A stretch of 64,000 bases of DNA from an uncultured Bacilli bacterium (GCA_934167695.1 CAKPLP010000003.1:11529-75528), one strand, 5' to 3'. Counted from the first letter of the stretch, positions 11,997 to 12,887 are shown. Notes: generated by a model from the letters alone, not told the origin. Numbers and translations: made by a program.

Positions 11997-12887
11997 ATGA
12001 AAAATAAGATAAAAGAAATAATAAAAAATAATTATAAGTTCGCCTTTATGTTTATTCTTGGCATAATAGTAGCAGGAGGAGGCGTGTATGCAGCAACTGT
12101 TGTTTCTGGTAGTACGGTAACTTATGATAATTCTACTAGTGGATTATCATCTACAAATGTTCAAGATGCAGTAGATGAGTTAAGTGGAAAAGCTGATACT
12201 AGTTCTATAAAAACACTACCTAATATAATAGCAGCGTATGAATATAGTACGGCCACGGCTACTATGTGTAAAACTGGTGAAGAGTCAACTTGTGTTGCAA
12301 CATATTGTTATACCAAAAGTACCTCTGGTAGTTGTAAACCTGGTACAATAATAAAATACAAGGTAAATGATTCAGAAATTAAGACTTTTAATGTTATTAG
12401 TGATAAGGGTGATACCATTGATATGCAAAGTATTGATAAAATAGGAAATAATATTTGGACTTATTCTACTAATGCTAATGGTCCTGTTCATAGTATGGAG
12501 TTACTTAATGGAAGTACTAAAACTTGGACAAATGTTAATGATCAGTCTTATTATTTTGGAAATTATGGTCCTAATTCTAGTTGTTCTGCTTATGATAATT
12601 GCTCTTGTGGTGGTTATGAGTTAACAGTAAGAGGAAAAGCAAGAATGATAACAGTTCAAGAAGCAGCGTCATTAGGATGTAGTAGTAATTATGATTCTTG
12701 TCCAGAATGGTTACCTTATACAAGAGCAAGTAGTAATTATAGAGAAAAGATTTGGACGATGAATACTGTATGTGGTACTACAGATGAGGTTTGGGTGATT
12801 TCACATTATTATAATCTTGAAAAATGGTCATTAGATGATTATGATGTGGCAATGAAGGCTGTTGTTAATATTAATAAGCCAGTATAG
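11997..12887 (+). CDS. secreted Cys-containing protein, paralog family copy 1 (conserved mature N-terminus ATVVSGSTVTYDNSTSGLSSTNVQDAVDEL)
   Basis: Signal peptide ends in GGGVYA|A. Conserved N-module shared with copies at 12905, 13786 and 44461. Many Cys. AGAGGTG RBS. Confidence 0.6.
   Translation: MKNKIKEIIKNNYKFAFMFILGIIVAGGGVYAATVVSGSTVTYDNSTSGLSSTNVQDAVDELSGKADTSSIKTLPNIIAAYEYSTATATMCKTGEESTCVATYCYTKSTSGSCKPGTIIKYKVNDSEIKTFNVISDKGDTIDMQSIDKIGNNIWTYSTNANGPVHSMELLNGSTKTWTNVNDQSYYFGNYGPNSSCSAYDNCSCGGYELTVRGKARMITVQEAASLGCSSNYDSCPEWLPYTRASSNYREKIWTMNTVCGTTDEVWVISHYYNLEKWSLDDYDVAMKAVVNINKPV

Follow-up and report, generated by a model that had tools for sequence, protein, structure and literature searches.

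Short-tract gene conversion as the probable origin of a 64-nt near-identical tract shared by tandem paralogs of a predicted lectin-fold family in an uncultured Bacilli bacterium

Interlocus gene conversion together with unequal crossing-over is well known from tandem gene families such as the opa genes of Neisseria, the PE/PPE and ESX genes of Mycobacterium tuberculosis, and the outer-membrane protein paralogs of Helicobacter. PMC13061034 is a recent example from M. tuberculosis. The tandem array described here resembles these families in its patches of near-identity that include synonymous sites, in tree incongruence, in copy-number change by fusion or deletion, and in forming a diversity hotspot amid conserved flanks. 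It differs from them in its unannotated protein family, in its host, which belongs to uncultured gut Bacilli, and in its placement inside a conserved priA–fmt–rlmN–prpC–prkC housekeeping cluster. With vlsE of Borrelia, pilE/pilS of Neisseria, MgPa/MgPar of Mycoplasma genitalium, and tprK of Treponema pallidum, the array shares segmental non-reciprocal transfer, conserved segments around variable ones, and defective copies, which in the array are copy 2 and a remnant at 44.4 kb only. Unlike those systems, it has no single expression site with promoterless donors, the copies number three to four, and the array types are stable across independent samples. From the variable proteins of diversity-generating retroelement (DGR) systems (Mtd of Bordetella phage, TvpA of Treponema denticola, and TaqVP of Thermus) it is distinguished by differences that are not limited to adenine-templated positions, the source of diversity being paralog recombination and allele divergence.

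The window, that is, the whole stretch of DNA analysed, is 64 kb long and has G+C content of 26.7%. It comes from an uncultured Bacilli bacterium of a lineage which we take to be the RF39-like group. Three tandem paralogs, all on the + strand, lie between a 246-aa ORF (10210-11151) downstream of fmt and the rlmN gene (14695-15762). Copy 1 (11997-12887) was delimited by ORF and translation, family alignment, and fold. It is intact, and its 296 aa are laid out as a signal peptide, a tail-fibre-type motif, a Cys-rich domain, and a C-type-lectin-like C-terminal domain designated type A, as predicted. Copy 2 (12905-13698) is a chimeric pseudogene that reads as 166 aa and 98 aa in two frames. Copy 3 (13786-14682) is intact, codes for 298 aa, and has a predicted C-type-lectin-like C-terminal domain of type B. 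The housekeeping cluster around the array (6720-19800) has the order priA, 407-aa ORF, fmt, 246-aa ORF, array, rlmN, PP2C phosphatase, PASTA kinase (PrkC), rsgA, and rpe, and the products of the 407-aa and 246-aa ORFs have no match in Pfam, NCBIfam, or PHROG. In Bacillus, an rsmB-type gene is usually found between fmt and rlmN.

The sole match to the array elsewhere in the 64-kb window is a fourth, internally deleted copy at 44463-44683 on the + strand, in the region 44400-44700 that the initial annotation had proposed for comparison. About 49 N-terminal codons of this remnant (..GGVYAAVTITGSNVTYSNSSSGLTSTTVL-stop; ..SGLTSTTVL-stop), covering the signal peptide and the motif and ending in a stop, are joined to the C-terminal tail (..ARAVVVVSK-stop). 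The remnant sits between a 118-aa ORF and a 697-aa ORF, 30 kb from the array.

A 36-nt segment upstream of copy 1 (11948-11983, + strand) was recognized in a repeat search as repeated before copy 3 at 13724-13759 with 81% identity. It ends in TATAAT, followed by a ribosome-binding site, and the upstream segment of copies 1 and 3 may be a duplicated promoter region. Copy 2 begins just 17 nt past the end of copy 1. This short spacing and the upstream repeats together suggest two putative transcription units. A consensus promoter and terminator scan of the array was not above the shuffled background in this AT-rich DNA, and no firm claim on transcription units is therefore made.

Copies 1–3 were not assigned to any family in Pfam (E≤0.1 for copies 1 and 3), NCBIfam, or PHROGs. 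More than 130 homologs of about 300 aa were recovered by a database search, with named sources being MAGs in which they are annotated as hypothetical protein [Bacilli bacterium]. These proteins form a previously unannotated family of uncultured low-GC gut Bacilli, with a predicted CTLD fold and a putative tail-fibre-type N-terminal motif. Four parts are recognized in the family consensus. The first is a basic N-terminus with a hydrophobic stretch running to GVYA/AT, which is probably a Sec signal peptide with an AxA-type cleavage site (marked by the slash). The second is the motif, with the consensus xVTYxNSxSGLSSTNVQGAIDELY; the third is a Cys-rich segment with four invariant cysteines; and the fourth is the C-terminal domain with invariant W, R, and E. 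The AlphaFold model of copy 3 has pLDDT of 87, and its C-terminal domain is predicted to have a CTLD fold of the bacterial Lcl-CTD / DUF1566-like kind, the relation being at fold level only. Identity to the Lcl C-terminal domain / DUF1566 and to the N-terminal domain of Thomasclavelia ramosa IgAse (PDB 8Q4E, 9QA6) is 17–18%, and the domain context of the array proteins (signal peptide, single tail-fibre-type motif, and Cys-rich domain) differs from that of the Lcl/IgAse type. The only sequence matches in PDB, to designed pentatricopeptide repeats, arose via the TYN..SGL motif and were rejected as spurious.

The peptide encoded by the near-identical tract corresponds to one unit of a tail-fibre-type repeat, ITYDNSTSGLxATNVQDAIDEL. 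Proteins P0114 (with PF07484 Collar domain), P0117, and P0108 carry three to eight such units, 75–79% identical to the tract peptide. The repeat occurs in several units in such fibre-like proteins, whereas the array proteins are small, chromosomally encoded, equipped with a signal peptide, and have a single N-terminal unit. The unit does not belong to a fibre shaft here, and the proteins gave no PHROG match.

The 64-nt island lies on the + strand at 12102-12165 in copy 1 and at 13891-13954 in copy 3. In copy 1 it encodes VSGSTVTYDNSTSGLSSTNVQ directly after the predicted signal-peptide cleavage site VYA/AT, and the tract is in frame, with the peptide VSGST(V/I)TYDNSTSGLSSTNVQ. The single mismatch reported in the initial annotation was confirmed (1/64, G/A at 12117/13906). 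The match runs one base further in the 5' direction, to 65 nt with one mismatch; the longest exact run is 48 nt, and 76 out of 80 bases are identical across 12086-12165. When aligned over 826 bases, copies 1 and 3 are 57.6% identical, and the coding flanks of the tract are indeed much more diverged, with 61% identity in the signal-peptide segment and 53% in the next 78 columns. Identity is confined to islands and does not cover the whole genes, as it would after a simple recent duplication. The mismatch positions were permuted 20,000 times, and neither a 48-nt exact run nor a 65-nt run with at most one mismatch was reached (p<5e-5).

Purifying selection acting on a constrained peptide with biased codons, or on an embedded DNA or RNA element, could also produce such identity. 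The tract does encode the most conserved motif of the family, with several residues 90–100% conserved over 100 homologs, and the G+C content of 26.7% makes for narrow codon choice. However, wherever copies 1 and 3 have the same residue in the tract, the codon is the same too (20/20), as compared with 62/99 outside the tract in this pair (Fisher p=3.5e-4), and the probability of 20/20 by independent draws from the codon usage of the window is 10^-5.8. Amino-acid conservation alone is therefore insufficient to explain the identity. Outside the tract, the synonymous difference between the two copies (pS) is about 0.49. In copy 2, 14 of the 64 bases do not match the 64-mer, and homologs in two other species have the same motif at 57–63% nucleotide identity, a range of 57–78% when copy 2 is included, so that coding for the motif does not need identity of nucleotides. 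Copy 1 of another strain, designated S, differs at 11 positions of the tract. As for an embedded element, the 64-mer has no Rfam match, and its RNA fold is not unusual (z −1.5). Selection on the sequence is by these results largely refuted as the cause and is considered very improbable. With a probability of about 80%, the tract is a product of interlocus (ectopic) gene conversion of the short-tract kind, in which one gene of a tandem array for predicted exported CTLD proteins was partly overwritten by another.

Other strains were found by exact-protein look-ups, and all array sequences are from short-read metagenome assemblies. The array type of the window is designated W; the others were from human-gut metagenomes. 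Strain S (L001–L006; L001 3858-6516) has three genes, as has W, with the third one broken. Strain H (L012, 4950-8715) has four genes, strain K (L013) has a partial array, and strain J (L014–L016; L014 1-2495) has at least three genes and no copy-3 ortholog. In these four other strain types, the flanks (priA end, 407-aa ORF, fmt, 246-aa ORF, rlmN, and PP2C) are 98–99.9% identical to the window, and for this reason they are considered strains of one species with the array as a local diversity hotspot. Within the array, identity between strains ranges from about 50% to 100%, depending on the segment.

When the N modules of the array genes were aligned, the signal-peptide segment and columns 173-250 and 251-362 grouped, apart from some cases, by gene position. 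Columns 93-172 behave differently: here copy 1 of W, H, and K goes together with the copy-3 genes of W and H, the identity being 92–98%. In the flanking segments, the same copy-1 and copy-3 genes are 53–67% identical to each other, and there each falls in with its positional orthologs, at 91–100%. Copy 1 of the window and copy 1 of strain S differ at 15 of the first 362 positions, and 11 of these 15 fall within 40 columns (scan-statistic P=5e-6). At the 11 clustered sites, copy 1 of the window carries the bases of copy 3. This ortholog comparison delimits a minimal conversion tract in copy 1 at 12098-12137 on the + strand (columns 105-144). In strain K, copy 1 has an intermediate tract, in which the 5' part of the patch is present and the 3' part absent; this implies two or more events that did not end at the same points. 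The tract shared by copies 1 and 3 of strain H is longer, about 77 nt with one mismatch. Comparison among strains for mosaic alleles, which had been recommended at the outset, was clearly positive, and allelic mosaicism is abundant. The claim of the initial annotation that gene conversion and segmental recombination have been at work here is upheld by the tract statistics, the incongruent segments, and the mosaic arrays of the strains.

The direction of transfer is tentative. Parsimony among three to five strain types, applied with no outgroup, suggests copy 3 as the donor of 12098-12137 and copy 1 as the recipient, because in W, H, and S alike the copy-3 lineage carries GGTAGTACGGTA. All four copy-1 genes have the 3' part of the tract (12138-12165), whereas the third gene of strain S (S3) lacks it. 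This part may be ancestral to copy 1, with transfer from copy 1 to copy 3. Within the 3' half of the tract, the S3 pseudogene departs from copy 3 of the window (W3), and the 64-nt identity may accordingly be a composite of two events. In an alternative polarity, copy 1 of strain S could itself be a converted or fast-evolving allele.

It could also be that the tract was imported from another strain or species by homologous recombination, as an allele. The array is clearly exchanged between lineages. Moreover, the C-terminal domain of copy 1 (12530-12887) is 50–77% identical to every copy in the four other strain types over most of its length, with flanks above 98%, which suggests imported or anciently kept alleles; this domain may have been kept as an old balanced allele or have come in from another lineage. 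Such divergence indicates that deeply diverged or imported alleles also contribute to the diversity of the array. On the other hand, the tract has its match in a resident paralog at a distance of 1.8 kb, in W as well as in H, so that the neighbour is the simplest donor, and import would leave the match at synonymous sites between two resident copies unexplained. Allelic import and interlocus conversion are not mutually exclusive, but as an explanation of the tract itself import is considered unlikely.

Conversion between neighbours is accompanied by other footprints of recombination in the array. The shorter identical stretch noted earlier in copies 1 and 2, ACAATAATAAAATACAAGGTAAATGAT, 27 nt long, is exact at 12345-12371 and 13244-13270 (both + strand) and is the longest exact run of this pair (permutation p=5e-4). 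Its copy-1 arm is placed at the boundary of the N module and the lectin-like module, where, at 12345/12346, the identity of copy 1 of the window to copy 1 of strain S falls from 100% to about 70%. From 12346, the next 66 nt are 100% identical to the copy-2 genes of S and H (S2 and H2). Copy 1 of the window is composed of an S1-type N module and an S2/H2-type start of the C module, joined at 12345/12346. The 3' end of the copy-2 arm is the crossover point of the copy-2 chimera, in which an N module of H2/S2 type reaches to 13270 and a C module of H3/J3 type starts at 13271. The simplest reading is that copy 2 arose by an unequal crossover in the shared AAGGTAAATGAT, which would have fused two neighbours of a four-gene H-like array.

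Copy 2 then acquired two deletions, identified against the intact 320-aa genes H3 and J3. One took a single G out of GG near 13388 (AGTGGACC to AGTGACC). The other, at 13568/13569, removed 177 nt flanked by GACTGCT microhomologies and, with them, the core of the predicted lectin-like domain. The third gene of strain S is a mosaic too, with the first approximately 105 nt identical to S2, a middle segment of H3 type, and a remainder of copy-3 type. An inserted T and the loss of 8 nt have disabled it.

Short-read metagenome assembly of a repeated locus, with strain mixtures being common in the gut, might produce such mosaics artificially if contigs were stitched across strains or paralogs. Against this, the array of the window, with the frameshift of copy 2 included, is an exact match to a deposited 109.7-kb contig, and its copy-1 and copy-3 proteins are present unchanged on six contigs. 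Five independent metagenome samples, drawn from more than one study, yielded the S-type array (2,835 bp) without a single base difference. At 48 nt (exact) and 27 nt, the stretches that the paralogs have in common are shorter than the final k-mer, as judged from k141 in the contig names, and the breakpoints in the array are in frame and coincide with domain boundaries. An assembly artefact is hence hardly probable as the source of the mosaicism.

The same constancy bears on programmed high-frequency antigenic or phase variation, in which silent cassettes would donate to expressed copies and the 64-nt tract would be a recombination anchor. Tandem copies, the pseudogene copy 2, the remnant, and short conserved anchors around variable modules are features that fit such a system, as is the raised dN/dS of the lectin-like domain. 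But the identity of the S-type array in the five samples and of the W-type proteins on the six contigs argues against it. In addition, copies 1 and 3 are of full length, each with its own start codon and upstream region; no recombinase, G4-type element, or large store of silent cassettes was found nearby, the neighbours being housekeeping genes; and the donors number three to four, not tens. No indication of active or programmed switching was obtained; each array type is fixed, and copy 2 is a dead gene, not a designed silent cassette. Programmed variation is consequently considered improbable, and interlocus conversion is retained as the preferred explanation.

Two other variation systems were considered and rejected. 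For a DGR target, no template repeat of any array segment was found in the 64-kb window, with the exception of the N-terminal motif of the remnant, and among the neighbours within about 6 kb (priA, fmt, rlmN, PP2C, PrkC, RsgA, Rpe, and two ORFs without Pfam match) there is no reverse transcriptase. Phase variation at simple repeats was rejected as the frameshifts of copy 2 and S3 are not at repeats. An A8 run (GAAAAAAAATTC) is present at 13984-13997 in copy 3, just past the conserved motif. Strain H has an identical run there, and this comparison gave no sign of a role as a slippage site.

Relatives in other species were searched in two ways. A search of genome contigs with copy 3 as query gave no confirmed relative. 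A contig scan with RlmN as query yielded 80 loci from related uncultured Bacilli and places the window among those of the gut; related records are also labelled Tenericutes or Mollicutes, and they include Clostridium sp. CAG:417, Candidatus Onthousia, and Candidatus Aphodocola. In the best species representatives, RlmN is 86–87% identical to that of the window. Near rlmN, locus L017 (RlmN 86%) has two family members, the first upstream and the second downstream at a distance of about 6.5 kb, while L047 (RlmN 87%) has none within 8 kb upstream of rlmN. At the locus of P0010, from another species, no other family member was found among the called neighbours. L017 is the only relative checked that has family members near rlmN, which means that the array position is not conserved beyond close relatives and that other species are unusable for dating of the tract. 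Judged from L047 and L017, the insertion of the array at the rlmN site is probably recent or labile.

In the closest pairs, dN/dS of the lectin-like part is 3.3 (S2–H2) and 1.5 (W3–H4), values that come from small counts, e.g., 19.5 non-synonymous vs. 1.5 synonymous changes, and in the N part it is 0.15–0.45. Values above 1 fit diversifying or relaxed selection on the predicted binding domain. The products are presumably exported and surface-exposed. The further claim of the initial annotation, that recombination drives surface-protein variation, is plausible and partly supported. It agrees with the predicted exported lectin-fold, the strain-variable C-terminal domains, and the raised dN/dS, with the qualification that the surface location is a prediction from sequence.

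The proposed mechanism is RecA-type homologous recombination between directly repeated copies. The homology would be provided by conserved coding segments, namely, the mature N-terminal motif, a stretch of the Cys-rich domain, and the GTIIKYKVND junction. One outcome would be non-reciprocal patches tens of bases long, such as the 64-nt tract; the other would be unequal crossovers that fuse or delete genes and so change the copy number between three and four. Selection for ligand-binding or antigenic diversity may then keep the variants. A more far-reaching and rather doubtful possibility is that this is a way of diversifying CTLD binding proteins by recombination, with no DGR, in a gut symbiont with a small genome. 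In such a case, the tail-fibre-type motif and GTIIKYKVND would be the anchors, and modules, including those of the pseudogene and the remnant, would be swapped on ecological time scales, altering ligand or antibody recognition.

The mechanism itself is a textbook mode of multigene-family evolution, and what is new is the family and the host lineage; no new principle is involved unless active switching proves to be true. The locus illustrates short-tract conversion and unequal crossing-over cleanly and with internal controls, in a family of predicted exported lectin-fold proteins. With array segments at 50–90% identity between strains vs. 98–99.9% in the flanks, the array could serve as a strain marker. 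The host lineage, uncultured gut Bacilli with reduced genomes, is one for which almost nothing is known on surface or host-interaction proteins, and in these bacteria the array could be a candidate host- or glycan-binding locus.
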